Shown here: piece by piece, positions 1,676-43,492 of the stretch
Layout of the letters: every line of letters starts with the position of its first letter
Numbering within the stretch: position 1 is the first letter of the stretch
DNA from: Candidatus Aenigmatarchaeota archaeon
Lineage (GTDB): Archaea; Aenigmatarchaeota; Aenigmatarchaeia; QMZS01
Reading direction: 5' to 3'
Length of the DNA stretch: 49,270 nucleotides
NCBI GenBank assembly: GCA_016932615.1
Contig: JAFGCN010000017.1
Span: 1-49,270, forward strand
Position numbers and translations under genes: made by a program
Notes under the pieces: generated by a model
Database searches by the model: none
Seen by the model: only the letters and a program-made list of their open reading frames with translations
What the model was told of the DNA's origin: nothing

Positions 1676-2144
1676 AGCATCAAAGGGCCAGATGCTTTCA
1701 TTTGATTTCCTGATTGTGTGCTCGGTTTTCCTTTTCCTCGGAGCGCTTTTAGTCATCCAGGCGGGATATGCCGTAAAGGAGTCGATGGAGATTGAGCGAA
1801 AGGATGTTATTTTGAGGGATGCGAACACCCTGGGGGAAATTTTTTTCAGGGAGGGGTATCCGCGAGACTGGAATGCAGCGAATGTGCAGATACTGGGGCT
1901 TGAATCTTCAGGAAGGATTAGCGATGAAAAGCTGGAAAAATTTGGGCAGCTCGATGTAGGGCGTACAATGATCCTTATGGGGCTTGAAAGTGAATATAAT
2001 ATTACCGTTTTATGCGGCGATGAAGTTGTTAGGTCGTACGGGGCGGCTTATGATGGTGCCTCGTCTATTGTCAAGAAAGAGCGTGTCGTGGTTTTGGAGA
2101 ATGGGACTATTGCAACAGTAAGGGTTCTTGTTTTTGAAAGATGA
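1650..2144 (+). CDS. Small pilin-like protein with a class III signal peptide (alternative TTG start at 1668)
   Basis: SRASKGQMLSFDFLIVCSVFLFLGALLV contains KGQ followed by a hydrophobic helix. The stop overlaps the ATG of the next gene (atga at 2141-2144). Confidence 0.55.
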   Translation: MEPASTLSRASKGQMLSFDFLIVCSVFLFLGALLVIQAGYAVKESMEIERKDVILRDANTLGEIFFREGYPRDWNAANVQILGLESSGRISDEKLEKFGQLDVGRTMILMGLESEYNITVLCGDEVVRSYGAAYDGASSIVKKERVVVLENGTIATVRVLVFER

Positions 2145-5100
2145 AGGGAATTGTGTTTTCGCTGGATTTAGTGCTGGGGATTTCACTTATGGTGCTTCTC
2201 CTGGCATCAAATTACTATCTTTTTTCGCCACAACCCTTTTATGAGGAAACCGGGATGGACCAGAAGTCTGCCCTTGCAAGAGATTTTCTGGAAGCTCTTG
2301 CAACGATGCGCGTCAATGAAACAACACAAAGCCCGACGCTTAACCAGCTCAAGGGAGGAGGGCTGACGGACGATGAGATGGAACTTTCTGTCCTGGACTT
2401 CATTTTGACCTACTGGGCTTACTCGAATCGGGAGGGTGATTACACTAAAAGGGATTATGCGGAAAATATAACAAAGGAACTGATAAACGCCACAAGGTGC
2501 CTGGAGCGATATAATTTTTCCCTTAGCATAGGCAGCGACCCGGTGGTTGGAGACTATGCCGGCACGCAAAATTCTGTTGTAGTTTCCTCCCTGATTGAAA
2601 ATACCTACAGCTCAAACTCAAGGCATGGCTATATGGCAAGGGCTTACCTGAATGGGATAAAAACTGAGCGGTCAAGATATTTGTACTTTGGAGGGTTTGT
2701 GGGTCAGGGAAATATTTCGGCTCTTCTTGAGCTTCCGGAATATGAGTCTGTTACCGGGGCGGAGCTCAATGTTTTTTCCGGGGCAAACCTGTCTCTTTAT
2801 ATAAACAGTAATTTTTCGGGGTATTTTTCCATAAACGAAAGCGCCCCTAATTTTACCGCAAATATTGTTTCCTCCGGCATCAACATCTCCAACTTCCGGG
2901 AAGGTAACAATACCTTAGGGATTTTATTTAATTCCACGGATTACCGCTATTCATATATTGGAGGTGGATTTCTTCGTGTCGATTATACAACAAGTGCCTT
3001 TTACGATGAAAAGCCGGGTCTGGTTGAGGAATACAGATTTCCTGGAATAGAAGGGCTTATCAATGTTTATGATGGGGTGTATCTTCAGGGAAACGTCACC
3101 GAAATACACCTTCACTATTATAATGAAATCCCGGGTTCTGAGGTTTACCTTAATTTTGCCAATGCCACGCTTTACAACAGCAATGCTTCCGGGGAGTCAT
3201 TAATTGAACTCAATGAATCGAACATTTCCGAAGGCCTTGCGGGGGCAGGGCTTAATGTGCAGGGTTTGACAGGAAGCACTGTGCCCTTGAGGGTGGGAAT
3301 AAGGAGCCTTAATTATACCCGGGGTCAGGGTTTTGGAGATGCCGTGCTGATAACTGATGTTTCTGGCAGTATGAGCACGTGCGATGTTTACTCGAACAAT
3401 TCCTGCGACTGCGATGCGCCTCCACCATGCTACCGAAACAGGATAAATGTTGCAAAGGATTCCGATCGGGAGTTTGTCAGTGGAATGCTGGGGCTTAATG
3501 GAAACAGGGTTGGGCTCGTCTCTTTCGATGATGCGCTTTCAGGATCCATATCTCTGACGGGGGACAACCAGACGCTTCAGAGCGAAATAGATACCTATGT
3601 TTCCGGTGGAGGAACTTGCATATGTTGTGGTATTGAAAAAAGTACAGAACTTCTTTCACAAAAATACCTTTCCGTTGACGCTTTGCCGAGCGGCTCGATA
3701 TGGAAGTACACTACAAGCTATCCTCTTTTGGCCCCTCCGGAAATGGACGGAAGAAACTGGACCGACAAAGACTACAATGATTCCGCATGGGCGGAGGGTC
3801 CTGCTGCCCTTGGATTTTTTAACATAAGCTGGGACTACCGAAGGCAGCTTAACCTTTCAAATGCCGCCGGAGCCCTTTACAGCTATCCTGTCAGGATATC
3901 AATTAACCTTTCTGGAGATTACTCTGACGGCAGGGTAAAGCAGTACTGTGGGGATGCAAGGTTTACATATTATAATTCAACCTCCGGCACCGAAACTGAA
4001 CTTCCCTACCTTATTGAAAGCTGCAACCTTTCTGGCAGCGACAATGCCACTTTTTGGGTCAGCGTGCCTTACATGGCTGCAAGCTCAGAAACAACACTTT
4101 ACCTATACTATGGAAACCCCTCAGCATCCCCTGGAAATAACCTTTCAATTTGCCCCGCAGGTGTTCAGGGCGGAAGATGCCTGCTGTTTTATGGCGGCTT
4201 TGAGGATTCTTCTGCCGTCGGACCTACAGGGTTTAATACTTCTGTCTGGTCGGTGGATTATGGAAGCGATGGCGATGAGTGTAGAGTTCACACAGACTCG
4301 GCGGACGTGCGCACTGGCTCTTGGGGTGGGGAGATGGAGGAAGGCGACGAGGGAGAGGTTGCCATAAGCACTCGTGATGGGCTGCTGAACCTTTCGGGCT
4401 GCACTAACTGCCGTCTTGATTTTTGGATTAAGCTCACCACCAACTGGGAAGATGCTGACCGGATATATGTCGATGTTTATGATGGCTCCTGGCATTATGG
4501 AGAGCTGAATTTGAATGGAGAAACTTACGATACCGGAAACTGGCACCAATTTACACTCAATCTTTCTGAGTATGATACCTCTAGCCCAGTCAGGGTGAGG
4601 TTTGATAATGAAGCTAGCGATGATAACGAGGAAGCTCATCTGGATGATGTAATGATATATCACTATGCCCTCTCCGAGCCGTATCTTGGATCGATAGGCA
4701 GCCAGGAAGGGACAACTGCCGTATTAAGTTCGAATGTCTCCACAGTTTTGGCAAATAATGGTGGGGACTACTACTTCAGGAAAAAGTTCTTTATCGAAAG
4801 CACAGAAATGCTAATAAATTCTTCCCTATATGTTTTTTCTGACGATGCCGCTGAAGTTTACCTCAATGGAAACCTTATCGACAATGATACTTCAGAGCAT
4901 AATGCCTCCTACTGGAACCGCGTTATGCCTTTTGATAAATCTCTTTTCCGGCTCGGCTGGAATGTGGTTTCTGCAAGGGTTAAAAATGACGACTCCTCTG
5001 CGGCTCTTTTTGACCTGCGCCTGGAAACTGTTGTCGGAAGAAAAAGGGCAATGCTTGTAATGAGTGATGGCGGTGCTAATTATGAGTGCACACCCTGGCA

Positions 5101-6013
5101 GTACAGCACTTATCAGGGTCCGGTGGATGCAATCCAATACTCCTGCAATGCGAGGGATGACAATATTACGGTATATTCTGTTGCTTTTGGCTCTGATGCA
5201 GACACACTAACACTCAAGAAAATCGCCTGCTGGAACTGCTCTGCAAATAATTGGCTTCCAGGGGAAAATGAGACCAACTGCTCGAAGTACTTCCAGAGCA
5301 ACAATGAGGAGGAGCTTATGGAAATCTATAAGAGGATAGCTGATGATATTGTCAACATGTCTGCGCAGCGCCAGGCGGTTTACGTTCAGGGTGACTGGGG
5401 CTTTAGAAACGTGCTGTACAATGATTCGCGTATGAGCATAAACCTTACAGAGGAATCAGTTTTTGGAGAAGGTGAATTTTTGCTTACCTTTGAGAAAAAC
5501 TGCACAGGCGGATACTGCATTCTTAACAAGTCTGCTGATGTTTCCCTGATTGACGCAAGAGTTACTTCTTATTCGGGTGATTATTGGGCCGACCTGATTC
5601 AGGTTTCAAACTCTTCAGGGCACGTTTCAACGATTTACAACTTGTCAACATATGGGGATTTTGAAGTTCTGGGAGACCCTTACAGCATAAAGCTTCCTTC
5701 GGATTTCTTTTCCGACGGAGCAAACAACATTACGCTTTATCACGGCATCGAGAACGGAAACCCTCAAAACCAGTCGAAGGCATACCGGGTCATATATTCC
5801 ATAAAAGTTCCGGGTTCGGTGGGATATGGTGGGGATGAATTTGTGTTTAATACCTCACAGGAGGCAAGAGACAATGCAACTGAGCGGCTTATACAGCATA
5901 TTGAATCAAAGACCGGAGAGGAAATCAGCAGCTATGAGATAAGCACTTCTCTTACAATAGAAGGCATAAGGGAACTTTCACAAATTGCTCTTGTGAGGTT
6001 TATTATGTGGTAA
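2141..6013 (+). CDS. Large pilin-like-N-terminus surface protein with an interrupted vWA domain. A jelly-roll (LamG/ConA-like) and a PA14-like region lie in the insertion. Candidate pilus-associated adhesin.
   Basis: N-terminus MKGIVFSLDLVLGISLMVLLL is pilin-like. The vWA metal-ion-binding (MIDAS) motif DAVLITDVSGSMS is near nt 3340, followed by NRVGLVSFDD and SGGGTCICCGIEKSTELL. The rest of the vWA (RAMLVMSDGGANYEC...ITVYSVAFGSDADTLTLKKIA) appears only near nt 5040-5235. Dozens of N-x-S/T sequons throughout. Confidence 0.75.
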   Translation: MKGIVFSLDLVLGISLMVLLLASNYYLFSPQPFYEETGMDQKSALARDFLEALATMRVNETTQSPTLNQLKGGGLTDDEMELSVLDFILTYWAYSNREGDYTKRDYAENITKELINATRCLERYNFSLSIGSDPVVGDYAGTQNSVVVSSLIENTYSSNSRHGYMARAYLNGIKTERSRYLYFGGFVGQGNISALLELPEYESVTGAELNVFSGANLSLYINSNFSGYFSINESAPNFTANIVSSGINISNFREGNNTLGILFNSTDYRYSYIGGGFLRVDYTTSAFYDEKPGLVEEYRFPGIEGLINVYDGVYLQGNVTEIHLHYYNEIPGSEVYLNFANATLYNSNASGESLIELNESNISEGLAGAGLNVQGLTGSTVPLRVGIRSLNYTRGQGFGDAVLITDVSGSMSTCDVYSNNSCDCDAPPPCYRNRINVAKDSDREFVSGMLGLNGNRVGLVSFDDALSGSISLTGDNQTLQSEIDTYVSGGGTCICCGIEKSTELLSQKYLSVDALPSGSIWKYTTSYPLLAPPEMDGRNWTDKDYNDSAWAEGPAALGFFNISWDYRRQLNLSNAAGALYSYPVRISINLSGDYSDGRVKQYCGDARFTYYNSTSGTETELPYLIESCNLSGSDNATFWVSVPYMAASSETTLYLYYGNPSASPGNNLSICPAGVQGGRCLLFYGGFEDSSAVGPTGFNTSVWSVDYGSDGDECRVHTDSADVRTGSWGGEMEEGDEGEVAISTRDGLLNLSGCTNCRLDFWIKLTTNWEDADRIYVDVYDGSWHYGELNLNGETYDTGNWHQFTLNLSEYDTSSPVRVRFDNEASDDNEEAHLDDVMIYHYALSEPYLGSIGSQEGTTAVLSSNVSTVLANNGGDYYFRKKFFIESTEMLINSSLYVFSDDAAEVYLNGNLIDNDTSEHNASYWNRVMPFDKSLFRLGWNVVSARVKNDDSSAALFDLRLETVVGRKRAMLVMSDGGANYECTPWQYSTYQGPVDAIQYSCNARDDNITVYSVAFGSDADTLTLKKIACWNCSANNWLPGENETNCSKYFQSNNEEELMEIYKRIADDIVNMSAQRQAVYVQGDWGFRNVLYNDSRMSINLTEESVFGEGEFLLTFEKNCTGGYCILNKSADVSLIDARVTSYSGDYWADLIQVSNSSGHVSTIYNLSTYGDFEVLGDPYSIKLPSDFFSDGANNITLYHGIENGNPQNQSKAYRVIYSIKVPGSVGYGGDEFVFNTSQEARDNATERLIQHIESKTGEEISSYEISTSLTIEGIRELSQIALVRFIMW

Positions 6014-9007: not shown

Positions 9008-9296
9008 TTTTGAACTTTTCAGGGCCGTACACCAGCAGGTATTTTACGCTTTGGCCACCGGGCGGGGCTTTTCCGACACTAACAGGAAAGCAGAGAGTTT
9101 CTTCAAGGCGGGTCTCAATTTCACTTTCCTCCATGGAAGCGAGCTTTCCGCTTTTTTCGAGGTTGCTAAGCCCGCCATATATCTTTTCTTCATATTCCGG
9201 GCTTGCTGCATGATTGGAGCTGAGCACGGCTATGGCAGAGATTATAATTAGCGAGGCTATGAGCGCTTCAAGTGAGAAAAAATAGCCTTTTTGCAT
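8979..9296 (-). CDS. Small pilin-like protein (start at the internal MQKGYFFSLEALIA; the track ORF 8979-9587 probably over-extends)
   Basis: MQKGYFFSLEALIASLIIISAIAVL has KG followed by a hydrophobic helix, resembling a class III signal peptide. The region upstream of this Met has no coding-like character and overlaps a plus-strand ORF. Confidence 0.4.
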   Translation of the reverse strand: MQKGYFFSLEALIASLIIISAIAVLSSNHAASPEYEEKIYGGLSNLEKSGKLASMEESEIETRLEETLCFPVSVGKAPPGGQSVKYLLVYGPEKFKTIQIAYQLP

Positions 9297-9320
9297 AATA
9301 AAGATACTACAAGTATATTG

Positions 9321-9698
9321 ATGGGGGATTGGAAAGGAGTGATAATCGAAGAAAGTTTGGGCAATAAAGAGCTTCTTGAGGATGCTGAGATTGTTGGGAG
9401 GTATAAACGGGATTTGGAAAGTGAAGGGGAAAAGGGCTTGTTTCACTTTTACAAGGTCAGGGTTTCGGATGATGTTATAGAAAAGGTGATCCGGAAGGGC
9501 AAAAGTGCAATAAAGCGGGGCTGGTATATTCACCTGTGCAAGGATGACCTTATGGTCATAATTTACAAGGACCGTAGCTTTCGGCACATAAAAGGGGACA
9601 AGGAGAGCTTGGTCGAGCTGAGGGATTATGGGAAATCAATAGGAATAGGTGATGCCCGGCTTCCAGATGAGTCTTTCTTAGAGAATCCCTGGGCTTAG
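9321..9698 (+). CDS. Hypothetical protein (start uncertain: 9291 or 9321)
   Basis: ORF of about 125 aa (MGDWKGVIIEESLGNKELLEDAEIVGRY...). No recognisable motif. Coding-like composition. Confidence 0.3.
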   Translation: MGDWKGVIIEESLGNKELLEDAEIVGRYKRDLESEGEKGLFHFYKVRVSDDVIEKVIRKGKSAIKRGWYIHLCKDDLMVIIYKDRSFRHIKGDKESLVELRDYGKSIGIGDARLPDESFLENPWA

Positions 9699-9760
9699 AG
9701 ACTATTCCAGTGACCTTACGATAAAACCCTTCTCCAGAACCTCTTCTTCTGCCCAGAAGT

Positions 9761-9961
9761 TCAGGTTTTTGTATTCATCACAAAAGCCACCTTCTTTTCC
9801 AGGACTCTCCTAGTGTAACTCTTTTTTCTTGGGCCCCATTCTTTGAGAAGGAGTGTGTCGCCAGGTGAGCAGTCAAAATCTGCAAGACGAAGGTCAAACT
9901 TTTTTTTGCCGCTTAGGGCTCTTTCGAAAAGGTCGGGCCAGGATTTCTTTTCGATACGCAT
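9761..9961 (-). CDS. Small PUA/ASCH-like (DUF3850-like) protein
   Basis: MRIEKKSWPDLFERALSGKKKFDLRLADFDCSPGDTLLLKEW resembles the DUF3850/ASCH beta-barrel signature (W/P..F.AI.SGKKTFE.R.ND.....GD.L.L.E). Confidence 0.35.
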   Translation of the reverse strand: MRIEKKSWPDLFERALSGKKKFDLRLADFDCSPGDTLLLKEWGPRKKSYTRRVLEKKVAFVMNTKT

Positions 9962-9995
9962 AATTGATTTTTTCTTATATCCTACTAGTATAATT

Positions 9996-11129
9996 ATGAG
10001 AGTTCCCTTGACCGGAGCGCACGCGGCAACTGAGGCAATCCGGCAGATAAACCCTGATGTTTTTGCAGCTTATCCAATAACCCCTCAGACGCCGATAATA
10101 GAGAAATACTCGAAGTTTATCGCAGATGGTGTTGTCAGCACTGAAATGGTGAGGGTGGAGTCCGAGCACTCTGCGATGTCTGCCTGTGTAGGCAGTTCTG
10201 CGGCAGGGGCAAGAACATTTACTGCCTCAAGCTCGCAGGGTCTTGCGCTCATGTTTGAGATTTTGCCTATAGCTTCCTCACTTCGCCTTCCAATCGTGAT
10301 GCAGGCCGTCGCAAGGGCCCTTTCAGGCCCTATCAACATACACTGTGACCATAGCGACATCATGGCCTGCCGTGACACCGGCTGGATACAGATTTTTTCC
10401 GAAAACGCCCAGGAGGCGTATGAAAATACCTTCCTTGCAACAAAGCTTGCGGAGAGAGTTTCACTTCCTGCGATGGTGGTGCAGGATGGGTTTGTAACCT
10501 CCCATTCGGTAGAGGGCGTCGAGCTTCTTGAAGACAAGGTGGCTGCAAAGTTTGTTGGAAATTATTCACCGAAATTTGCCCTGCTTGACCTGAAACATCC
10601 CGTAACTCTTGGGCCTTTTGCGCTTCAGGATTACTACTATGAATTCAAGATGCAGCAGGAGGCTGCGATGTCAAATGCGAAGAAGGAATACCTGAAAGTA
10701 GGGCGCGAGCTTGGTCTAGTTACGAGAAAAAAGTATCCTTATTTTGAGCCATACCGGCTAAGGGACGCAAAGTCCGTTATTGTCGCTGCCGGCTCGACGG
10801 CAGGAGTGATAAAGGATGTTGTTGACGAGCGGCGGGCAAAGGGCGAGAAAGTAGGGCTTTTGAAAATAAAGCTGTTCAGGCCGTTTCCGACAAAAGAAAT
10901 CGAGCAGGCGCTCAGGGGAAAGGCAGTTGCTGTTCTGGACAGGAGCATGTCTTTTGGCGCAAAGCCGCCATTGTATCTCGACATAAAAGACGCCTGCGGA
11001 AAAGCAGCCAGTTATATTTACGGGCTTGGCGGAAGAGACATCTTCTCTTCCGACATCCACAAGGTATTTGACGAACTGAAGAAGAAAAAGCTGGATGGTC
11101 AGGTAAAGTATATAGGTCTTAGAAGCTGA
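9996..11129 (+). CDS. porA: Pyruvate/2-oxoacid:ferredoxin oxidoreductase alpha subunit (PorA-like). The start is at the internal ATG 9996; the upstream part of track ORF 9843 is not coding.
   Basis: MRVPLTGAHAATEAIRQINPDVFAAYPITPQTPIIE...SEHSAMSACVGSSAAGARTFTASSSQGLALM shows the PorA/KorA N-terminal and transketolase-C-like core motifs. A TATA-like tttcttatat lies about 20 nt upstream. Confidence 0.8.
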   Translation: MRVPLTGAHAATEAIRQINPDVFAAYPITPQTPIIEKYSKFIADGVVSTEMVRVESEHSAMSACVGSSAAGARTFTASSSQGLALMFEILPIASSLRLPIVMQAVARALSGPINIHCDHSDIMACRDTGWIQIFSENAQEAYENTFLATKLAERVSLPAMVVQDGFVTSHSVEGVELLEDKVAAKFVGNYSPKFALLDLKHPVTLGPFALQDYYYEFKMQQEAAMSNAKKEYLKVGRELGLVTRKKYPYFEPYRLRDAKSVIVAAGSTAGVIKDVVDERRAKGEKVGLLKIKLFRPFPTKEIEQALRGKAVAVLDRSMSFGAKPPLYLDIKDACGKAASYIYGLGGRDIFSSDIHKVFDELKKKKLDGQVKYIGLRS

Positions 11130-11183
11130 TTCCAATTATCCAGAATTATGCTTATATATAATAATCTATCTAATACTATAGTT

Positions 11184-12593
11184 ATGGCAAGCCTTTTGCA
11201 GCACTTCGAAAGAGCTTTTAGTGCTTACCGAAAGAACCTGATTCCGTATACATTCTCGGCGCTTCTTGTTTGCTTTGCTGCCGTTTTTGTCATGTTCCTT
11301 GGAATGCTTGTTTTCGTGCTTAACTCGGAGTCTGTCTTTTACTCGGAGGAGTTTATGAACCAGGCGGAGCTTGACCCTGCAGTAGTGTTGCTCGCATTGA
11401 TGACACCGGGAAACATAGCGATACTCTTTACCTTCTCTTTTTTGGCTCTCGTTGCATTCCTGTATATGTCTGCCGGAGTTTATGGAGTTTGTCTTGAGGG
11501 GCTCAGGGGAAGAGTCTCTGTAAGGGCATTTTTCAGTTCCGTTGCAAGGCGTGGCGGGTCGTACCTAATCGCTTCACTCATCCTTTTAGGTTTCCTGATG
11601 GGATTTATCGTGCTTGCAATGTTTGTTCCAATATTTCTTTTTGTAAGCATGCCTGTTGCTGCGGCAGTTCAGTCTTATCTTGTCTGGTTTTTGCTCATTT
11701 ATTTCCTGGGCTTCCTTCTTACGCCTTTCTTCTTCTCTGTCCTTCCAGCCATAGTTTCCGGAAGGGGGATAATAAATGCTTTCAGGGAGAGTATGGCTGT
11801 AGGCAGGGATAATTACCTTGAGCTTTTGCTTCTTGAGGTGCTTCTCTTTACAGGTTTTTTTGTTTCTGCGCTCATTCCATACATTTGGGCGGGAATTTTG
11901 TTTTTCATTTCCGTGCCTATTGCTACATTTGTCAACTGCTCCTTTTACCTTGACAGGGTAAGCCCAGCTAAGATGGGTGCGCACAAAGAATCCCCAAAGC
12001 AACCTTCCGGGCAGAGAAGAATTCCTGCAAGGGTTATGCCTGCCAGGGCTGCGGCTGAAAACCAAAGGCCTGCAAAGGAAAGCGAGTTTATAGAGGAGCC
12101 GCCCGTTGACTTTACAGTTTCAGAGTCAAAGAAAAAGCTTGTTTCGGAGCTTAGAGAAAGGGCTATTTCGGAAGACCGGAAAAAACAAGGGCAAAAGAAA
12201 AAGCAGGTGTCCGCTGCAACCGCCAGAAAGAAGAAAAAAGATACTCTCAAGACAAAATCGGCAAAGAAGCCAAAGTTGAAGAAGCCGATTGTGAAAAAGA
12301 AGCCTGCAGAAAAAAAGCAAAAAAAGAAAGTGCCTGTGAAAGAAGCCCGCGCGAAAAAGGCAGGCCCAGCAACTAAGGAAACTGCTGCCGAGCCCGCAGC
12401 AATTGCCCCCATTCCAAGCGCACCTTCAAAAGCTCCTTTAAAAAAGAAGCCCGTGAAGAAAGTGAAAACTCCTGCCGCAAGGCATTCAATTGTGCAGAGG
12501 GCAATTGCAAAGCACACGACTGCAAAGAACCGGGACATTGAGCTTTTCCAGCAGCTGGAGTTGCCAAAAAATAAGCCAAAGAAGGGCAAGTGA
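11184..12593 (+). CDS. Polytopic membrane protein with a C-terminal histone-H1-like lysine-rich tail of about 140 aa (alternative start 11148)
   Basis: About 6 predicted TM helices (e.g. IPYTFSALLVCFAAVFVMFLGMLVFVL). Conserved SGRGIINAFRES segment. The tail reads KKQGQKKKQVSAATARKKKKDTLKTKSAKKPKLKKPIVKKKPAEKKQKKKVPVKEARAKKAGPATKE. Paralogous to the next gene. Confidence 0.6.
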   Translation: MASLLQHFERAFSAYRKNLIPYTFSALLVCFAAVFVMFLGMLVFVLNSESVFYSEEFMNQAELDPAVVLLALMTPGNIAILFTFSFLALVAFLYMSAGVYGVCLEGLRGRVSVRAFFSSVARRGGSYLIASLILLGFLMGFIVLAMFVPIFLFVSMPVAAAVQSYLVWFLLIYFLGFLLTPFFFSVLPAIVSGRGIINAFRESMAVGRDNYLELLLLEVLLFTGFFVSALIPYIWAGILFFISVPIATFVNCSFYLDRVSPAKMGAHKESPKQPSGQRRIPARVMPARAAAENQRPAKESEFIEEPPVDFTVSESKKKLVSELRERAISEDRKKQGQKKKQVSAATARKKKKDTLKTKSAKKPKLKKPIVKKKPAEKKQKKKVPVKEARAKKAGPATKETAAEPAAIAPIPSAPSKAPLKKKPVKKVKTPAARHSIVQRAIAKHTTAKNRDIELFQQLELPKNKPKKGK

Positions 12594-12630: not shown

Positions 12631-13512
12631 ATGGTGACATTTACAGAACACCTCAGACGAAGTTTCGGAGCTTATATTCGCAATTTCCGGGTAATAGCGC
12701 TTGCGCTCATCATTGCAGCAATTCCGTCGGCAATGCTGGTGGGGCTCGGATTTTACGCAGTGTCTGACTTCTCTTTTGGCGAAGCGGGGCGACTTGCAAA
12801 GGAGACCTACTTTGCTGACAGAGTTTCTATTTGGGAGGACTCACCTTACCCTCCTGAACTGTTTTCCCCCTGGTTTTTTGTGTTCGAGGGCCTGGCGGCC
12901 ATCGTGACATCATATATGCTTGCGGGAACCTATGGGGTATGCCTTTCTGCCATAAAAGGGCGGCCATCTCTTTCTGATTTTTTCAGGTCTCTTCGGGAAA
13001 GTGGGGTTACCCTTGTTTTGTCAAAAATCGCACTTCTTGCAGGGCTTACTGTTTCGCTTGTGCTTTTGTTTCTTACAGGCCTTGTTTTCGCAGCGGTTGC
13101 TAACGCAATTTTCTCGGTTTCTGAAGGGCTGCTTGGCATGCTTTTCGTTCTGTTTTTTATCCTGATAATCGCTCCTATTTTGCCTCTTGTGCTGCTCGTG
13201 TCCCCTTCAGTTGTTTCTGGCAGAAGCGTAGTTGAGGCGTTCAGGGAGAGTTACGCCCTGGGCATTAAGCATTATTGGGGGATTGTTGGGCTTATCCTGG
13301 TGGCTATGGTTCTGATGGTTGTAAGCGGAATTCTGGGTGTTTTAAATGCCCTGGCGGCACTTCTTTTTTCCGGATTTTTTGTTTCACCCCTGATTGCGCT
13401 GCTGCTGTCCTCATACTACCTTGATAAATCAGGCAAAAAACAGGCAAGGGGCTCTGAGATGACGCCACGGAATGCGGCAAAGAAGAAAGTGACACAATCG
13501 AGGAGGAAGTGA
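12631..13512 (+). CDS. Polytopic membrane protein, a paralogue of the preceding gene but without the lysine-rich tail
   Basis: Shares block order with 11184-12593: FGAYIRNFRVIALALII vs FSAYRKNLIPYTFSALLV; VSGRSVVEAFRESYALG vs VSGRGIINAFRESMAVG; YGVCLSAIKGRPSLSDFF vs YGVCLEGLRGRVSVRAFF. Confidence 0.6.
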   Translation: MVTFTEHLRRSFGAYIRNFRVIALALIIAAIPSAMLVGLGFYAVSDFSFGEAGRLAKETYFADRVSIWEDSPYPPELFSPWFFVFEGLAAIVTSYMLAGTYGVCLSAIKGRPSLSDFFRSLRESGVTLVLSKIALLAGLTVSLVLLFLTGLVFAAVANAIFSVSEGLLGMLFVLFFILIIAPILPLVLLVSPSVVSGRSVVEAFRESYALGIKHYWGIVGLILVAMVLMVVSGILGVLNALAALLFSGFFVSPLIALLLSSYYLDKSGKKQARGSEMTPRNAAKKKVTQSRRK

Positions 13513-14762
13513 CAATGATGCTTAATTTTCTTGGAGGGTGCAATGAAGTGGGGAGAGCCGGCTTTGTGGCAAGTGACAGGAATTCGAATCTTCTTCTTGA
13601 GTATGGGGTAAAGCTTCAGCCAAAAATAGAGCTCCCTTCAGTTCCTACCGTAAAGCTCGACGGCGTTTTTATTTCACACGCTCACCTTGACCATAGCGGA
13701 ATGGCGCCGCTTCTTTACCGGCTCCAGAACCCAAAGCTCTATGCAACTTCCGCAACGATGGACCTTATGCATCTCCTTCTTGAAGACTACATAAAGGTCG
13801 GAAAGCTTACGAGGGGCTTTTCCGAGTTTACTGCCCGCGACATGGACATGATGAACCGAAATTTCAAGCGGTGCTCTTACAATAAGCAGTTTCGTGTCGG
13901 AAACCTCGACTGCAGGATTTTTCCGGCGTACCACATCCCAGGAAGCGCTTCGATTCATTTAAGAGGCGCAAAGTCGCTTCTTTTCACAGGCGATATTGCT
14001 CAGTCCAAGACCTACCTTCTGGGCTACCACCACATAAACTATCCAAAGACCGACTGCCTTATGATGGAAACAACTTATGCCGCTGAAGACCATCCGGACA
14101 GGGAAAGAGAAGAGAAGAGGTTCATTGAGAAAATAAAGGAATATGCCGGAGGCATAGTCCTTCTTCCAAGCTTTGCTGTCGGAAGGGCGCAGGAGCTTCT
14201 TCTGATGCTCCACGCAAACGGGATAAAGCAGGACATTTATCTTGACGGCATGGCGCAAAAAGCGGCGGACATAATACTCTACCACAAAAATGAGCTTAGG
14301 GATGCGCATGAGCTTAAGGAAGCGATGAAGAAAGCGCACTTTGTGAAGACAAAGAAGCAGAGAGCCGCCATATGCAAGAAGGGTGGGATTGTACTGACGA
14401 CTTCAGGCATGCTTAGCGGAGGACCAATATGCTATTACCTCAGGAAAGTGCGGGACGATTCCGATGCTTGCCTTCTTCTTACTGGCTACCAGGCGGAAAA
14501 CACTCCCGGTTATGGCGTGCTTAAGACGGGCTACTTTGAAAATGAGGAGGATGGCCGGTACAAGGTGAATCTTGAGGTGATGAAATACGATTTTAGCGGC
14601 CATGCCGGAAGAAGCGAACTCTTTGGCCTGATTAAAAATGTAAAGCCGAAAACGGTCGTGTGCGTTCATGGAGAGCATACCAAGAGATTCTCTGAGGAAG
14701 TCCGCGACAGGTTTCACATTGAGGCATTTGCACCCAGGAATGGAGACGTACTTGAGGTTTAG
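13509..14762 (+). CDS. beta-CASP family metallo-beta-lactamase RNase (aCPSF2-like, no KH domains)
   Basis: HAHLDHSG (HxHxDH zinc motif), a later downstream D/H motif region, GRAQELLLML and a C-terminal VHGEHT motif characteristic of beta-CASP nucleases. 417 aa. Overlaps the upstream stop by 4 nt. Confidence 0.75.
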   Translation: MTMMLNFLGGCNEVGRAGFVASDRNSNLLLEYGVKLQPKIELPSVPTVKLDGVFISHAHLDHSGMAPLLYRLQNPKLYATSATMDLMHLLLEDYIKVGKLTRGFSEFTARDMDMMNRNFKRCSYNKQFRVGNLDCRIFPAYHIPGSASIHLRGAKSLLFTGDIAQSKTYLLGYHHINYPKTDCLMMETTYAAEDHPDREREEKRFIEKIKEYAGGIVLLPSFAVGRAQELLLMLHANGIKQDIYLDGMAQKAADIILYHKNELRDAHELKEAMKKAHFVKTKKQRAAICKKGGIVLTTSGMLSGGPICYYLRKVRDDSDACLLLTGYQAENTPGYGVLKTGYFENEEDGRYKVNLEVMKYDFSGHAGRSELFGLIKNVKPKTVVCVHGEHTKRFSEEVRDRFHIEAFAPRNGDVLEV

Positions 14763-14806
14763 ATTTCTGTTTTTGCCCGGGCATGCGATTCTATTTTATT
14801 TCATAA

Positions 14807-16603
14807 GTGTATTCAGTTATGCCAAAAGTTCTTCTGGGAAAGAACATTATCGACAAGCCCGTCAATTGGGAGATTGAAAAGGAAAAAAACCCGCATCTGC
14901 TCGTTTTGGGGACTTCCGGGTGCGGAAAGACGGAAACCCTGAAGGCGATAATACATGACCTTAACGCCGCAAAGGTGCCTTCACTTATAATTGATTTTCA
15001 CAGCGAGTTTTCCGGGGTCGGGGATAAAGTCCTGAATATGAGGGACTCAGGAATGAACCCTCTTGAGTTTTCAGAGCATGAAACTCCTGAGTCGGTAGTT
15101 TATGAGGTTTCAGGAATCATAAAGAAGATATTCGGGCTTGGCGAGATACAGCAGTCAATAATCAGGCAGGCGCTGAAAAACAGCTACCTTGAAATGGGAA
15201 TTGATGTTCGAAGGGAAGGCCCCGCGGAAAGCTATCCTACCTTTTCAGATGTAAAACAGCATATATACCAGCTTGAAACTCCATCAACAAAGAGAAACAT
15301 AGAGTCTCTCATGAGTAGAATTGACCCTCTTTTTGAGCTTGAGCTTTTCCAGAGCAGCAACCAGATTGCTTTTTCAGACCTCCTGAACGGGACGACTGTA
15401 GTTGACCTGAAGAACTTTCCGACCGAAGAGATAAAGTCGGTTATCGCGGAGTTTTTCCTTGCAAAGCTATCTTATTATATCTACTCGCTTGAAAAGTCAA
15501 AGCAGATGAAGCTTTATGTTGTTGTAGATGAGGCGCACCGCCTTATGTATGAGGGCTCTCCTCTGGACCGTTTTTTGAGGGAGTCCAGAAAGTATGGCGT
15601 TGGAGTGATTCTTGCTTCGCAGCGGCCCACAGACTTTAACGAAACAGTTCTCGCCAATGCGGGCGTGTTATTAAGCTTTCAGTGCACACTGGAGAAGGAT
15701 GCAGTTTTTGTGGGAAAGCAACTGGGCCTTGACTCAAAGAAGGTAAGAAACTTGATTGAGCCAGGAATTGGTTATGTCAAGTTCTCGCGGTCCGATAAGG
15801 CCGAGCGGGTCCATATAACCCGGCTTCAGGACAGGATGACCGAAGAGGAAAAAGCGAAAATGAAGGAGCAGGCGAAATATTCCGGCAAAAAAACCGAGAA
15901 GCGCGAGCCACAAAAAGTGGTTCCCCGGGTTAAGCCAGAAGACCTCTTAATTGAAAACGATTCTCTGGGAAAAGATGGTCCTGATGAGGAAGAGGTTACT
16001 GCTGAGAGAAAGGAGCCGGTTTATGACGAGCGGGAGGAAGAGCCGCAGGAAGATGCCCTGGGCGCAGAGGAAGCCTTGGCGGAGAATGAAGATGAATCCG
16101 AAGACAAGGGGCGGGAGGAGACTTCAGATGATGAAGCGCCGAAAAAAGAAAGAAAAAGGCATCCTGATGACAGTGGCGGCGAAAAAACAAGGGAGGAGCT
16201 CGAAGAAGAATACCGAAAGAAGGAAATCGAGGAGGAACTTGAGCGCAAAAAAAGCGAAGCGGTGGAATCAGATGAACGCCGGGAAAAGCATGTACACCAC
16301 GAGACGCACAGGCAATCAGAATCCGGGGGCGATTTTTCACTTTCAAAGCTATTCTTTTTCGACAACGAATCGATCGGAATCCGCCCAGTTGTAAGGGCTG
16401 CCTTTATCACGCTCATGTTTATTGCGGGTTTTTGGCTTCTGATTATGCTTAACATGAACTGCTGGCTGTTCTTCTGCCTTGCTGTTTTGTGGACTCCCCT
16501 TACTGCTGAGCTTTTCAGGGTGGAGGGACACTCGAAGATAATTTTTGACATTTTCCGGCTTATTTTTACCCTGGTGCTGGTTTACCTTTTTGTAGTCTTT
16601 TAG
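14807..16603 (+). CDS. HerA/DUF87-like P-loop ATPase with an acidic low-complexity linker and a C-terminal double-TM anchor
   Basis: Walker A LVLGTSGCGKTE, Walker B LYVVVDEAHRL and the arginine-finger region ILASQRPTDF match the HerA/VirB4/DUF87 fold. Residues ~390-510 are a D/E-rich linker (EEEVTAERKEPVYDEREEEPQED...). The last ~80 aa have two hydrophobic helices (FITLMFIAGFWLLIML; IFDIFRLIFTLVLVYLFVVF). Confidence 0.75.
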   Translation: MYSVMPKVLLGKNIIDKPVNWEIEKEKNPHLLVLGTSGCGKTETLKAIIHDLNAAKVPSLIIDFHSEFSGVGDKVLNMRDSGMNPLEFSEHETPESVVYEVSGIIKKIFGLGEIQQSIIRQALKNSYLEMGIDVRREGPAESYPTFSDVKQHIYQLETPSTKRNIESLMSRIDPLFELELFQSSNQIAFSDLLNGTTVVDLKNFPTEEIKSVIAEFFLAKLSYYIYSLEKSKQMKLYVVVDEAHRLMYEGSPLDRFLRESRKYGVGVILASQRPTDFNETVLANAGVLLSFQCTLEKDAVFVGKQLGLDSKKVRNLIEPGIGYVKFSRSDKAERVHITRLQDRMTEEEKAKMKEQAKYSGKKTEKREPQKVVPRVKPEDLLIENDSLGKDGPDEEEVTAERKEPVYDEREEEPQEDALGAEEALAENEDESEDKGREETSDDEAPKKERKRHPDDSGGEKTREELEEEYRKKEIEEELERKKSEAVESDERREKHVHHETHRQSESGGDFSLSKLFFFDNESIGIRPVVRAAFITLMFIAGFWLLIMLNMNCWLFFCLAVLWTPLTAELFRVEGHSKIIFDIFRLIFTLVLVYLFVVF

Positions 16604-22696: not shown

Positions 22697-24664
22697 TCAT
22701 ACTTCTTTAATCCCAAGTTCCCTTAGGTACTTGAATGTTTTGTCATAGAACTCTGGAAGTCTGGTGGCGTCATTAAGGTCTCCTTCAGGTATAAATATCA
22801 CTAGGCCTTGTCTTGCCCGCGTGAGCAGTACTCGATAAGTATTTTTTAGATAATTTTGGTTTTCCTTTTCTCTCATAGTTTGCCAACCTTTTCCTCTGAA
22901 AAGTTTATAGGCCCAACCCCCATCTTCAAATCTGAGGTCAGCGTCCCATGCGACACACACCCAATCAAGCTCTAGACCTTGTATGTCAAATTCTGTAGCC
23001 ACATCTTCAAGATAGAATGATGATCTAACATCTTCTTTAGGATTTAAGAACCAATTTTTGGCATTAATCTTTACCTGGACGCATAACCCATAGGGTTTTA
23101 GTCTATATGCTCCAGAGCTAGCGACGAGACCTATTCTTTCTGAACCTCTTGCTTTTTGTTTCAGCCAGACTTTTGCTTTATTGATGTCCCTCGTAACCAC
23201 AATTGGGTATTTACCCTCTAACTGAGGGACTATATCTATTGCAGATTCTTTATCGCAGTCTAAAAGCGATTTGATGAACTTGGATACATTTTCACTTCTG
23301 AATGAGCGAATATCTGTGCTTAGGTGTAAATCCTCAATAGAATGATATATTAATTCACCAAGTAGCTCTTGGAGGTTAGCCCCTTGAGTATATTCTACTT
23401 CAGATATCTCTGTTGAAAGATAGATTTGCCAATGGGCGAACTTTTTTCTCAATGCTGTGAACCATTCAGGCAAACCGGCCTCCCCCGTATTTATCTCTTG
23501 ACCTCCACCAATCAAGCATATAATAACTGCCCAGTCTTTGTGGCGATCCATTATGCTGATTAGAAACTCTGGTTCAGACATGTCAAAATTTAGGACTCCT
23601 TTTTTCTTCTGCATAAATGCCGAGGTTTGTTTGTGGGTCCATGCTCTTTGGGCTTCATCGAAGATTACAACCTTCTCAAGGGGAGGGGTCTTAACACTTA
23701 AGGCATCATCTCTAAAGTGATGAATATTTTGAATGAATGCTTTGGATTTCTTTAAAGCTTTTGTCTTTGTAACTTTCTCTTGGGAAGTTTTAACCTCGTT
23801 TCTAGCTAACGCCTCTTGTAATACGTCTACTAGGGGGCCATTTCCGGATAAAAAGACCGCATGCTCTTCTTCAATGAATTTGTGCCTTTCATTTGCTAGA
23901 TTCAATCCAGCAAGAGTTTTTCCTGCCCCCGGAACTCCAGTAATAAAACAAATCGCTTTAATTTTTTCTTGTTTTGCTTTATCAATTATTTGATTTATGG
24001 CTTCTGCAGTTCTGCTTAGATTAATCTTTCCAGAATCCGAACGGGATATTTCTTCAACACTATGCCCCTGGTATAAGGCCTGTGCGGCTTCGATAATTGT
24101 GGGTGTTGGCATATATACTGAATTTTCCCAGTCGTAAGGGTTAATTTCTCTTTCCTTGTGTTTGGTAAGGACCTCAGCTATGGTTTTGGAGAGATTTGAG
24201 GAGTTACAATAGAGGGGTTGAAAGATGCCATCTTCATATACCTTCAACTCAGCGTGTTTCTCAGGAGCATTAGTTGCTACTAGAATGGGCACTAATTTAA
24301 TATTATGGCTCCCTTCTTGAAAATTTTTTAGGTCTACAGCATAGTCCACCACTTGATCTATTGCACTTTTTGGATAATCTGAACTGCCTACCTTGAATTC
24401 TAGAACAAAAACCATTCCCGATACAATGAGTATTACGTCTACCCTGCGACCCATTCTTGGGATTGAATACTCGAAAAGAATATGGCCTTTTTCGAAGTTC
24501 GCCAGTTGTTCTTTAAGTAGGATTATTTCCTGCAACCAAGCGTTTCTTTGTTGCTCTTCTAATCTAAATTCATGATTTTCAGTTAAGTTTCCTAAAATTG
24601 TCTGAGAATCATCTGTTAAGAATTCACTCAAGGGTCTTGAATAGTAAGAGCGTTTCATAATCAT
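22697..24664 (-). CDS. DUF2075-type nuclease-ATPase (N-terminal PD-(D/E)xK/NERD-like domain fused to an SF1-like P-loop NTPase); defence-associated family
   Basis: The N-terminal GRRVDVILIVSGMVFVLEFK gives a D...E-x-K nuclease motif. Walker A FITGVPGAGKT, Walker B VVIFDEAQRAW and C-terminal VLLTRARQGLVIF (SF1 motif VI-like). Markedly AT-richer than the flanking genes. Confidence 0.75.
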   Translation of the reverse strand: MIMKRSYYSRPLSEFLTDDSQTILGNLTENHEFRLEEQQRNAWLQEIILLKEQLANFEKGHILFEYSIPRMGRRVDVILIVSGMVFVLEFKVGSSDYPKSAIDQVVDYAVDLKNFQEGSHNIKLVPILVATNAPEKHAELKVYEDGIFQPLYCNSSNLSKTIAEVLTKHKEREINPYDWENSVYMPTPTIIEAAQALYQGHSVEEISRSDSGKINLSRTAEAINQIIDKAKQEKIKAICFITGVPGAGKTLAGLNLANERHKFIEEEHAVFLSGNGPLVDVLQEALARNEVKTSQEKVTKTKALKKSKAFIQNIHHFRDDALSVKTPPLEKVVIFDEAQRAWTHKQTSAFMQKKKGVLNFDMSEPEFLISIMDRHKDWAVIICLIGGGQEINTGEAGLPEWFTALRKKFAHWQIYLSTEISEVEYTQGANLQELLGELIYHSIEDLHLSTDIRSFRSENVSKFIKSLLDCDKESAIDIVPQLEGKYPIVVTRDINKAKVWLKQKARGSERIGLVASSGAYRLKPYGLCVQVKINAKNWFLNPKEDVRSSFYLEDVATEFDIQGLELDWVCVAWDADLRFEDGGWAYKLFRGKGWQTMREKENQNYLKNTYRVLLTRARQGLVIFIPEGDLNDATRLPEFYDKTFKYLRELGIKEV

Positions 24665-28847: not shown

Positions 28848-31800
28848 ATGTCACTGCCTTGGAAAAAGGGGTCGAGCGCTTCATTTAAATTGAGTCTATG
28901 CCTGATAACGCTTATTTTGCTCGCCTTTTGCGTTAATGCGGACACTTATTCGGCGTTTTGCACCACAGGCACCGAAATTTATACAGATAAGCCGGATTAC
29001 GAGCCGGGAGAGACTGTGAATATTACCGGGCACGGCTTTCTGCCAAAGGCACCATTAAATATTACGATTACCCGGCCGGACCGTGTTACCGACTCCTGCG
29101 GCTCTTCTTCCTGCTATTTTAGGTTCTTGAATGGCACCCTGATATCCGACAGGGAAGGGTCTTTTTTTGATTATCTTTACCTTCTTAACGGCATAACCGG
29201 AAATTACACCGTCCGGGTGACTGACGGCAAAAATTATGCGGAATTCTGCTTCATGGATGGCCGGAATATTACAAACGTGACTCTTGACGGCTTAAGCAGC
29301 GTTTCAGTTCTTCCAAGCGCTTCCATTACTGCTGCGGTAACCCTTGTTTCGACATCCGGCAGCTACTGGCGCTCCACAATGTACCAGATTGAGGGTGAAA
29401 GCGCCGTGTGCGTGGATACGCCAGACCACACTGAGTCAGGAACTCACACTTATACAGAGCCCTTTTCAATAACAGCCCCTTCTGCGCCCGGCGTTTATGA
29501 TGCCAGTTTTATCGCTTATCTTAACAATGACTGTACAGGAAGCAGCCCAAGCAATACCTATACTTTAATCGACGGCATAACAGTCACATCTGACGCCGTA
29601 TGCGGCGATGGGGAGATTGAAGCGCCCGAATCCTGCGATGATGCTAATACCGACGATGCTGACGGCTGCTCGTCTTCCTGCCAGGTGGAATCCGGCTGGT
29701 CCTGCGCTGGTGAGCCAAGCTCTTGCGCAGAAGTGTGCGGAAATGGCATAATAACTGCAACCGAGGAGTGTGATGATGCCAACACTGATGACTCCGATGG
29801 ATGCGGCTCATCCTGCGCCATTGAAGCCGGTTGGTCCTGCACAGGTGAGCCGAGTGAGTGCCTGGTGTATAATCCTGCCCTTCCAAGCTCTTGCGGAATA
29901 GATATTGCGCTTATTATAGACAATTCCGGGAGCATTGACAACTCGGAGCTCACGGCAATGAAAAACGCGTTTAAGGGCTTTGTTGACGCTTTCCTGCCGG
30001 ATACCCCCACCCACATAGCGGTTGTCAAGTTCAATACTGATGGAGACCTTGTTTTGGACTATAGCGGAGACGCAACCGAAATAAAGAATGCAATTGATTC
30101 GGTGTCGACAAGCGATGGCTACACCAACTGGGACGATGGGCTAAAGGAGGCGCAGGATGAGTTTGACAACTCGCCAAAGCCGGACTTGTACGTTTTTGCT
30201 TCTGACGGGCAGCCGAACCGCCATGGCGACCCGGCAGTGGATGGAGAGCCCGAGTCTCTTGCTGCAGCTATAGAAAGGGCAAACCAGTTAAAGCTGTCTG
30301 GCGTAAGGATAATCACTCTTGGAATTGGCGTTACAGGTGACGGCGCTTCCAACCTTAAAGCAATCTCAAGCGAGGATGCCTACTATTCCTCAGGATTTGA
30401 CACCCTTGCGGATGACTTGGCTGACCTTGCCGATGAGCTTTGCGGAGGCACGATAACAGTAAGGAAGCTGGTTGACGGAAGCCCTGCAGGCGGCTGGGAA
30501 TTTTCGGCAAGCGTAACCGATGGAGAATCAATCCCGGCAACTTCCACAACCGGTGAAGATGGCTTCATAGACCCGGTTTTTGACATAAACATAACAGACA
30601 CGGTTTCAACTGTGGACATAACAGAAACTCCCAAGCAGGGATATAATTTTGTCAGCGCAGCTTGCAAAGACCAGGATGAAAATCCGGTGGGAACGCCTGG
30701 CGTTGGAACGGTTACTGGAATAGTGATTGGTCCAAATGATGCGGTTTACTGTGAATTTAACAACAGCGGGGTTTTGTGCAGCGAGCACTCCAATTCAGAG
30801 TCCTGTGAGGAAGATGAGGGCTGCAAGTGGTGCCCTTCCTGCAACAACCCTTTCAGGAATGTTTATTATCCTCTCGGAAACTGCATAAGCGAGTCTGCTG
30901 AATGCGCCTGGAATGGCTGCTCGGTCGAATGCGGAGCCGAGTGCGATACTGAGACTCCATGCCTTCCAAAGCAGGATGAGAATTACTGCTACTATGGCGG
31001 AGAATGCAATTCCTCATGCTTATGCGGTTACTTGTCCCAGTTCTGCCCACCACCTGGGACTGAAGATAATGGAACCTGCTACTATGGCGAGCAGTCCTGC
31101 ACCGAAAACGGCTGCCAGGTTACAAGCGCAGAAATGTCTTGCCCGGGGCTTGTTTGCGATGAGATTCTTGGCCCTGTGGACATGATTGGGCCTGTAACCA
31201 GTAATTTCACTGCTGACCCGATTCCACCTCAATTCCTTCCAGGGCCACTTCCAGCAAAGTGGCTGGTAAACATCAGCGCCCTTGAAACAGAGGACTGCTC
31301 GAATGTTTCTGCTGCGGAATATTTTGTTTCAAAGAATGTTTGCTATTATCCTCCGGACACTGAGAGGGGAACGCCTATGGGTGCGCTTGACGGCTCTTTT
31401 GGCGGGCTTGTGGAATTGGTAAACACAACTCACACATTTAATGAGGAAAACGACGGGCTTTACTGCTTTTCCATAAGGGGCAAAAACGACGCTGGCTACT
31501 GGGGCAATATATACTGCGACTGCATAAATGTGGATACCCAGGTTCCGCTTGACCCGACAAATGTTACGCTTACGCCTTATATATGCAACCAGAACAGGAC
31601 TTTGAACGCAAAGGTCTGTGACGCAGAGTCGGATGTTGTGGGCGGCGAATATTATTTTGACATATTTACGGACTGGATTCCTGGCGGGCAGGGCCTTTTG
31701 ATGTATGTGCAGAGCCAATATGTACTTGAAGAGCCCGAAGGAAGATATTTTTGCGCTAACCTGAATGCCACTATAGACGTCACAAATGTGTCTGATGGCT

Positions 31801-40339: not shown

Positions 40340-40421
40340 AATCAAACATATTTGTATTTTTATGCCATGCTTCTGCGCCGTCTGAGCATTTTTGAATATT
40401 CCTAATATATAATATACCTTT

Positions 40422-41952: not shown

Positions 41953-42149
41953 TATAAAATAAAATACCTTCAAAATTATGAATATGTGGCAAAAACTCAA
42001 GGAAATCCGGAAAACCTCCAAATTCCTGAAGGTTACCCCCGAGCAGGCACCTAGTACCTTAAGAAGGTTCAAGAAAGAGATTGAAGAGAAGAAATAATGC
42101 TTGAATAGTTATATTTAGATTATTGATTATTATAGTCATTGTTTTTGAC

Positions 42150-42227: not shown

Positions 42228-42252
42228 TATTCGATTGCCTAAAGGCTCTTAG

Positions 42253-43389: not shown

Positions 43390-43492
43390 ATCCTCAAGAC
43401 ACTCGGATAATCGCTAGAGGAAGCAATTCAATTATAATGCAACGTTGTGGGATGCACCGTATTATCCAGTATGCCCTATTTAGTAATATGCT

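Follow-up and report, generated by a model that had tools for sequence, protein, structure and literature searches.

The gene analyzed here lies on a 49,270-nucleotide stretch of DNA from Candidatus Aenigmatarchaeota archaeon (contig JAFGCN010000017.1, positions 1 to 49,270, referred to below as the window), in the open reading frame 14807..16603 of the forward strand. It encodes an ATPase of the FtsK-HerA superfamily in which a compact motor core without the N-terminal HAS barrel is followed by a highly charged tether and by a conserved tail of three predicted membrane helices that reaches the C-terminus. The superfamily itself is known; what appears to be new is a DPANN-specific, C-terminally anchored, HAS-less ATPase of the HerA/VirB4 clade with interchangeable localization modules, of which we found no description in the literature searched. 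Our preferred, still tentative, reading is that the protein is a stand-alone ring motor tethered to the membrane, where it would have a housekeeping role in acting on DNA, either in its transfer or uptake or in its clearing at division.

To our knowledge, archaea are generally said to be without FtsK. We know of little on DNA movement at archaeal membranes apart from the crenarchaeal Ced system, and of almost nothing for DPANN episymbionts. The nucleotides and other building blocks of these episymbionts must come from their hosts. A conserved, single-gene, membrane-tethered member of a superfamily of DNA pumps is therefore of interest as a concrete, clonable candidate for DNA movement at the DPANN membrane. 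It also presents a case of exchangeable localization modules (a fused tail with three transmembrane (TM) helices, a coiled coil plus zinc ribbon, or a membrane partner that is encoded separately and carries a zinc ribbon) and provides the compact motor of the DndH and MADS defense systems with stand-alone archaeal relatives. If the protein proves to be only another defense accessory, its interest would be ordinary.

Architecture of the ATPase and its membrane tail

In the AlphaFold2 (AF2) model, residues 1–357 form a compact core with a predicted local distance difference test score (pLDDT) above 90. An alignment of 41 relatives shows that G31, S33, G34, G36, K37, and T38 of the Walker A motif (GTSGCGKT, residues 31–38) are invariant, as are D237, E238, A239, H240, and R241 of Walker B (VVVDEAH), R257, K258, Y259, and G260 of the RESRKYG segment, and the sensor glutamine Q268 of SQRP. 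The arginine-finger and sensor region aligns to REGRKFGVG...SQRP of HerA, and the core motifs in general align with their counterparts in Sulfolobus HerA and the DptH C-domain. An Arg finger immediately upstream of strand 4 and a sensor-1 Gln are hallmarks of the P-loop NTPases that form the HerA/FtsK clade (PMC10853773), and the window protein carries the defining features of this clade, the FtsK-HerA superfamily. The AF2 helices of the insert between the two Walker motifs (90–105, 109–125, 142–151, and 158–172) are alignable with the DptH C-domain and HerA, and the insert is probably equivalent to the helix bundle of HerA or the all-alpha domain of TrwB.

Pfam DUF87 (PF01935, "Helicase HerA central domain") matches with 40.7 bits, above its gathering threshold of 23.2, over residues 28–219, which correspond to model positions 23–218 of 220. 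HerA_C, TrwB_AAD_bind, and FtsK_SpoIIIE gave weaker Pfam matches, around the P-loop only. With DUF87 above its cut-off and the motifs invariant, the core is of the HerA/VirB4/FtsK (DUF87) class, as the original prediction, made from the sequence alone, had proposed.

The evidence for the membrane tail comes from hydropathy, AF2, and conservation. All 26 hydropathy windows (19 aa) with a Kyte-Doolittle value of at least 1.6 lie after residue 518; in a shuffle control (n = 1000), the mean number of such windows was 1.2 and the maximum 17, and none of the shuffled sequences reached 26. AF2 predicts tail helices at residues 521–542, 548–565, and 572–593 with pLDDT of about 90. In the 11 closest species, K-x-FFY precedes helix 1, which has an Arg at its start and ends in G.W.LY; helix 2 contains LFF.LA.IW.P, and after a charged loop helix 3 runs to the C-terminus. 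These conserved residues are sequence motifs beyond mere hydrophobicity. The original prediction of hydrophobic C-terminal helices and a membrane tether agrees well with these data and with the retention of the tail in orthologues, except that the helices number three and not two. By all three lines of evidence, the protein is predicted to belong to the C-terminally membrane-anchored proteins. A cytoplasmic motor with an outward-facing C-terminus would fit the conserved Arg ahead of helix 1 and the K/R-bearing loop that separates helices 2 and 3. It should be noted that a search with the 92-aa tail alone against 5.8 billion proteins returned no match, not even to family members, which says little because short hydrophobic queries are poorly detected by this method.

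The picture for the tether is more complex. The predicted linker of about 120 residues dominated by E and D does exist as a highly charged segment, but it is 148 aa long and mixed in composition, with 37% D+E and 20% K+R over residues 358–505 and a net charge of about −26 (−22 for residues 400–520). It is disordered in the AF2 model except for one charged helix, residues 458–488, which, judging from its composition and the model, is possibly a single stable alpha-helix acting as a spacer. No tandem repeats were found in the tether. Across the family, neither the length (26–196 aa) nor the net charge (−23 to +16) of this segment is conserved, and the window protein and its three nearest relatives have the longest and most acidic tethers. 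Linker acidity, presented earlier as characteristic of the protein, is therefore a quirk of its sub-clade, and tethering is the conserved property. We also considered the acidic linker as a DNA mimic and rejected this as a family trait in view of the variable charge and length and the lack of repeat structure. Three other open reading frames overlie the tether, 15951–16394 (+), 15996–16346 (−), and 16021–16551 (−); rich in Ser, Arg, and Lys and of low complexity, they shadow the GAA/GAG-rich coding region and are unlikely to be genes.

The reading frame as originally called is real, and its start has to be moved. The mechanical start is the GTG at 14807, and the fifth codon of the frame is the ATG at 14819. 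The N-termini of the homologues (consensus xxxILLGKN in the 41-relative alignment) begin at the position equivalent to this ATG, and a TATA-like element fits the same start; for these reasons, the gene most likely begins at 14819 and its product has 594 aa. The element makes it possible that the ATPase gene has its own promoter, with a leader that would be very short or absent. The coordinates of all features are given in Table 1.

Table 1. Features of the ATPase gene and its product (window coordinates; residues counted from the ATG at 14819).
Feature	Coordinates	Strand	Basis or remark
TATA-like element CTATTTTATTTCA	14791..14803	+	Read from sequence; 22 nt separate its centre from the downstream ATG 14819
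Gene of the ATPase (594 aa, HerA/VirB4 clade, membrane-anchored) from its most likely start	14819..16603	+	Homologue N-termini; deposited identical protein
ATPase core, residues 1–357: RecA-like P-loop fold with helical insert, without N-terminal HAS barrel	14819..15889	+	
Walker A / P-loop VLGTSGCGKTE, residues 29–39	14903..14935	+	Alignment of 41 sequences
Helical insert between Walker A and Walker B, residues ~75–190	15041..15388	+	AF2 secondary structure
Walker B KLYVVVDEAHRL, residues 231–242, with D237 and E238	15509..15544	+	Alignment
Arginine-finger and sensor-1 region FLRESRKYGVGVILASQRPT, residues 252–271	15572..15631	+	Alignment
Charged tether, residues 358–504/505 (148 aa)	15890..16330	+	Composition; AF2
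E/R/K-rich helix in tether, residues 458–488	16190..16282	+	AF2 pLDDT ~80
Pre-membrane segment DFSLSKLFFFDNESIG with conserved K-x-FF(Y/F) motif	16331..16378	+	11-species alignment; short AF2 helix 509–512
Predicted membrane helix 1, residues 521–542; conserved Arg before, G.W at end	16379..16444	+	Hydropathy; AF2; alignment
Predicted membrane helix 2, residues 548–565; LFF..A..W.P motif, then charged loop	16460..16513	+	Hydropathy; AF2; alignment
Predicted membrane helix 3, residues ~572–594, reaching the C-terminus	16532..16600	+	Hydropathy; AF2; alignment

Distribution of the family and its localization modules

A "DUF853 family protein" (P0001) deposited from a Candidatus Aenigmarchaeota metagenome-assembled genome (MAG) has the same sequence (100% identity), and the rest of the window holds archaeal housekeeping genes (SepCysS, ThrRS, EF-1alpha, FEN1, GlmS, kleisin, and pyruvate:ferredoxin oxidoreductase); the window is a fragment of an Aenigmarchaeota (DPANN) chromosome. 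A word-indexed search returned 64 close clusters (E ≤ 1e-66), and those with a named source all come from Aenigmarchaeota or Woesearchaeota. Scanning one genome per GTDB species with two exact peptide patterns gave 32 loci at 40% identity or more, one locus per genome, and the next tier falls to 24–27% identity. These loci come from Aenigmatarchaeota, Woesearchaeota, one Micrarchaeota, MAGs labelled "uncultured archaeon" or "archaeon", and two MAGs labelled Methanosarcinales, which are probably mis-binned. By this sequence-based census, the family is confined to DPANN archaea.

Every complete Aenigmatarchaeota species representative has the membrane tail except L023, which carries a zinc ribbon instead, and the Woesearchaeota and Micrarchaeota members among the species loci are without it. 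In a set of 70 "ATPase + tail" proteins, membrane helices are found in 48, a coiled coil followed by a C-terminal CxxC...CxxC zinc ribbon in 11, and a coiled coil only in another 11. The motor would thus be the constant part of the family and the localization module the exchangeable one, with a membrane tail in Aenigmatarchaeota and a coiled coil with or without a zinc ribbon in the Woesearchaeota type. This pattern suggests that the selected property is membrane localization and not linker acidity.

A profile search of 1.84 billion representative proteins gave 686 matches at E ≤ 1e-30. The 340-aa core also occurs as the last domain of two other kinds of protein, one of 580–880 aa from Bathyarchaeota, Conexivisphaerales, and Helarchaeota and the other DndH-like with 1500–1880 aa, and, rarely, behind an N-terminal multi-TM domain (Thermoprotei). 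In a rough neighbor-joining distance tree of 184 cores, built without support values, the DPANN "ATPase + tail" proteins form one 69-leaf clade, its sister is a 38-leaf clade of archaeal "N-extension + ATPase" proteins, and most DndH-like proteins lie further out. The sister clade includes P0073, P0075, P0077–P0079, P0087, about 30 more proteins, and the product of L010 6001–8355. The N-terminal region of its members (340–520 aa) is helical with AF2 pLDDT from below 50 to 66 (P0073, P0079, and others) and has no match in Pfam or PDB sequence searches. By eye, these extensions (P0073, P0079, and others) looked like repeated winged helices, which we did not use as evidence.

Some of the relatives without a tail have a membrane-protein gene next to them. 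In 6–7 of the 14 tail-less loci, a zinc-ribbon membrane-protein gene adjoins the ATPase gene, and several of these overlap or abut its stop codon. The partners in L009 (7374–8375), L031 (6036–6674), L041 (4997–5893), and L057 (5608–6237) form one family with an extracellular Cys-rich domain; those in L038 (9713–10840) and L058 (6527–7003) are other proteins with a zinc ribbon and TM segments, and L023 has a convergent TM-zinc-ribbon gene (9276–9740, minus strand). When the profile of the Aenigmatarchaeota 3-TM tail was searched, its best match outside the ATPases covered residues 1–75 of the partner in L009. With E 0.0027, 13.6 bits, and a high compositional bias, this match is weak; it aligns all three helices and the iW.P motif. 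Together with the recurrent adjacency, this weak profile match suggests that membrane coupling is family-wide, being fused in Aenigmatarchaeota and supplied by a neighboring gene in part of Woesearchaeota; the two arrangements may be fused and split versions of one machine.

The tail-less members of the Woesearchaeota type also have a context resembling defense loci or the mobilome, which was not seen for the tailed Aenigmatarchaeota genes. Many of them lie beside type I restriction-modification genes (L031, L057, L035, and L023), RhuM (L036 and L057), Bro-N/ORF6N genes (L029, L034, L035, L038, and L056), HNH or PDDEXK nucleases (L028 and L038), and a UvrD-PDDEXK gene with a CARF-like gene (L058). 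This survey was rough and used a handful of query families.

Comparison with known motors and possible functions

With PADLOC, the best scores were those of the DndH C-terminal ATPase (122 bits, 3.6e-36) and mad8 (89 bits, 8e-26), and a PDB sequence search placed the DptH C-domain (7es4) first and HerA (4d2i) next. No NCBIfam model reached its cut-off: CedB scored 78.5 bits (4e-22) against 700, CedD 67 bits (1e-18) against 600, HerA 50 bits (2e-13) against 800, mycoplasma VirB4 54 bits, and FtsK 14 bits against 1566. A viral packaging ATPase was rejected, the BFVD and PHROGs matches being much weaker than the cellular ones. Membership is limited to the FtsK-HerA superfamily and Pfam DUF87, and the defining features of the named systems are missing.

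Among membrane-associated relatives, CedB and CedD are archaeal membrane-anchored HerA/VirB4-like ATPases needed for DNA import (PMC11868833). They are the best NCBIfam matches, yet at about one tenth of the equivalog cut-offs and over the ATPase part of the profiles only; the N-terminal TM segment, the VirB4-like N-terminal domain, and the partners CedA/CedA1/CedA2 that characterize them are absent from the window protein, and no CedA-like neighbor was found. The coupling proteins TrwB (PDB 1e9r), VirD4, and TraG have N-terminal TM helices and a nucleotide-binding domain with an all-alpha domain and are linked to a relaxase and to type IV secretion system (T4SS) clusters, whereas the anchor of the window protein is C-terminal, its gene lies in no such cluster, and the profile scores stay far below cut-off. 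With FtsK/SpoIIIE, the protein shares the superfamily, membrane helices, a long low-complexity linker, and the plan of a ring DNA motor, but not the full set of an N-terminal membrane domain, linker, alpha-beta motor, gamma winged helix-turn-helix, and full-length profile match. TdtA is a membrane-bound relative that moves DNA (PMC5365140). The nearest described layout is that of the nanohaloarchaeal "SPEARE" giant proteins of DPANN, which join a cytosolic VirB4/TraG-like ATPase to membrane helices and a coiled coil (PMC10266531). The likeness noted is one of layout (TM-ATPase-coiled-coil), and SPEARE proteins have large extracellular Ig-like arrays N-terminal to the TM segment, while the window protein has no extracellular domain. 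By analogy, the window ATPase would work most like the membrane-associated members of the superfamily, among them the coupling proteins, TdtA, CedB/CedD, and, with its parts in inverted order, FtsK.

For the gene neighborhood, we used 13 loci with precomputed Pfam annotation and an all-against-all clustering of frames within 8 kb in the 32 species loci. The clustering gave no neighbor family common to the whole family, and in the 13 annotated loci there were no NurA, Mre11, Rad50, CedA, VirB6, or pilin partners. The tailed Aenigmatarchaeota genes have sub-clade synteny with housekeeping genes only, in several species of three separate sub-clades. Exosome Rrp4/Rrp41, adenylate kinase, and NAC genes are near the ATPase gene in six species. 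Seven loci have AlaX or AlaRS-type genes, in four of them with a 234–235-aa AlaX directly upstream, and three loci including the window have SepCysS (SepCysS-ThrRS). ScpB follows immediately downstream in three close species (L018/L020/L021, about 9550–10070), 27 bp past the ATPase stop codon on the same strand. RadA, Orc1/Cdc6, RPA with RadA, and topoisomerase I occur nearby as scattered single cases. The upstream genes of the window itself encode two DUF7847-like membrane proteins (11148–12593 and 12631–13512) and a KH-less beta-CASP RNase (13509–14762). A functional link with them had been suggested; it finds no support because these genes adjoin no homologue in the 32 species loci, and a conserved operon of this composition can be dismissed.

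On our preferred reading, the protein would be a P-loop motor of the HerA/VirB4/DndH-C branch that lost the N-terminal HAS barrel or never had it, and whose C-terminus ties it to the cytoplasmic membrane. The core would assemble as a hexameric ring, like its relatives, with active sites lying between subunits, as the Arg finger implies. Driven by ATP, the ring would pull a polymer, of which DNA is the likeliest, through its pore, and six tethers and anchors would keep it within some tens of nanometers of the inner membrane face. DNA would then be moved into or out of the cell, as by CedB/CedD, coupling proteins, and TdtA, or cleared at division, as by FtsK. We regard DNA as the most likely substrate by analogy, because HerA, FtsK, TrwB, TdtA, CedB/CedD, and the DndH motor each have a connection with the movement of DNA (PMC10853773, PMC11868833, PMC5365140), and we favor a housekeeping motor because the Aenigmatarchaeota gene occurs in a single copy without a fixed partner or effector, in housekeeping synteny that is stable within sub-clades. 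As to the specific role, each option is by itself short of probable: DNA transfer or uptake is possible and comes first, defense and any other function are each rather doubtful, and a septal or segregation pump is somewhat less likely again.

Several observations weigh against a housekeeping DNA motor. The substrate may be DNA, protein, or pilin, and VirB4, which ranks second among the structural matches, does not itself pump DNA. Neither a channel protein (CedA, VirB6, or ComEC-like) nor a DNA-binding domain was found fused or conserved nearby. Linkage to DNA metabolism (ScpB in three species, RadA, Orc1/Cdc6, and a Xer-like integrase) is scattered and not conserved; the integrase gene (Phage_integrase) lies 375 bp downstream of the ATPase in the sister-clade locus L010. 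Membrane insertion and topology are predicted, from hydropathy, AF2, and conservation. Finally, the closest relatives by sequence, the DndH C-domain and mad8, act in defense systems, and the tail-less relatives are often found in restriction-modification or mobilome contexts.

The last two points make defense, which the original prediction had not considered, the main rival. The protein would then be an anti-invader ATPase, a motor stationed at the membrane that intercepts or reels in entering foreign DNA together with restriction enzymes or other effectors whose genes lie elsewhere; the C-terminal motor of DndH/DptH and mad8 of MADS would be its analogues. A "HerA/FtsK capture" concept for defense systems has been published (PMC10853773). 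The comparison with DndH itself is limited to one domain: in the DndFGH/DptFGH phosphorothioate-dependent restriction systems, DndH is a soluble protein of about 1700 aa with eight domains (superfamily 2-like, target recognition domains, inactive methylase, restriction endonuclease, and the HerA/FtsK ATPase last) and the partners DndF and DndG, whereas the window protein has 594 aa with a stand-alone N-terminal ATPase followed by tether and membrane helices, and its gene has no restriction endonuclease, methylase-like, or DndF/G context. The syntenic housekeeping neighborhoods of the tailed genes in three sub-clades are unusual for defense genes, no effector is fused or consistently adjacent, and the sole defense-like gene within about 8 kb of the window ATPase is a Schlafen-type helicase 6 kb away. 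We consider a defense role unlikely, though ahead of the other rivals.

A VirB4-like secretion ATPase acting on proteins, in pilin extraction or insertion or in surface-protein export possibly tied to attachment of the episymbiont to its host, has a low likelihood. VirB4 (PDB 4ag5) has a large N-terminal domain and sits in a T4SS gene cluster, both missing here; the VirB4 profile gives 20 bits against a cut-off of 643, neither pilins nor VirB6/CedA nor further secretion components recur as neighbors, and a giant frame of the window (28848–38471) has no ATPase domain.

Equally improbable, as an extension of our preferred reading, is an archaeal conduit for DNA or septal pump, sufficient in itself, in which 18 conserved membrane helices from six subunits would sit under one ring motor as an inverted-topology functional counterpart of FtsK/SpoIIIE or CedAB. 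With it, DPANN cells might pull DNA across or away from the membrane, for host DNA uptake or as the "missing" archaeal translocase of the division site; in Woesearchaeota, two genes would share this machine, one for the motor and a coupled one for the zinc-ribbon membrane protein.

An ordinary soluble HerA-type repair helicase with an incidental or artefactual hydrophobic C-terminus is effectively excluded: the DUF87 match, the good sequence and structure match to Sulfolobus HerA, and RadA directly upstream in one relative speak for it, but Walker A begins at residue 31, leaving no HAS barrel, the HerA equivalog profiles reach 26–50 bits against cut-offs of 800–970, no NurA, Mre11, or Rad50 neighbor occurs in any locus examined, in contrast to the HerA-NurA end-resection operon, and the tail is conserved, motif-bearing, and confidently helical. 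The original prediction had likewise set the protein apart from the soluble HerA-NurA helicase, and the end-resection reading is not favored here. The two findings that it had named as contrary evidence, a C-terminus without predicted TM helices and tail-less orthologues beside nurA/mre11/rad50, were not obtained.

Other genes of the window

The two upstream membrane proteins (11148–12593 and 12631–13512) are tandem paralogous multi-pass proteins whose DUF7847 matches are weak and below the Pfam cut-off; the first has an extremely lysine-rich C-terminal tail of about 200 aa. The beta-CASP/metallo-beta-lactamase RNase (13509–14762) scores 273 bits with aCPSF1 and 219 bits with type VII Cas14, both below cut-off, and its GTG start overlaps the stop codon of the upstream gene by 4 nt. 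The Schlafen helicase is of group-3 type (22697–24664, minus strand; PF09848, 2e-86). The kleisin (ScpA/Rad21-like) gene lies at 39611–40630 on the minus strand, 23 kb from the ATPase.

The giant frame 28848–38471 encodes 3207 aa with VWA, DUF4215, SpaA-like, and MopE-like motifs, and a second frame, 2141–6013, encodes 1290 aa with VWA/DUF2341; the latter likewise has no ATPase domain. Presumably, both belong to the surface or adhesion proteins that are typical of DPANN.

Two non-overlapping tRNA calls were obtained, each by one tool: an 86-nt tRNA-Asp(GTC) by ARAGORN, listed as 42147–42232, and a 115-nt tRNA by Rfam, listed as 43276–43390, whose length suggests an intron.

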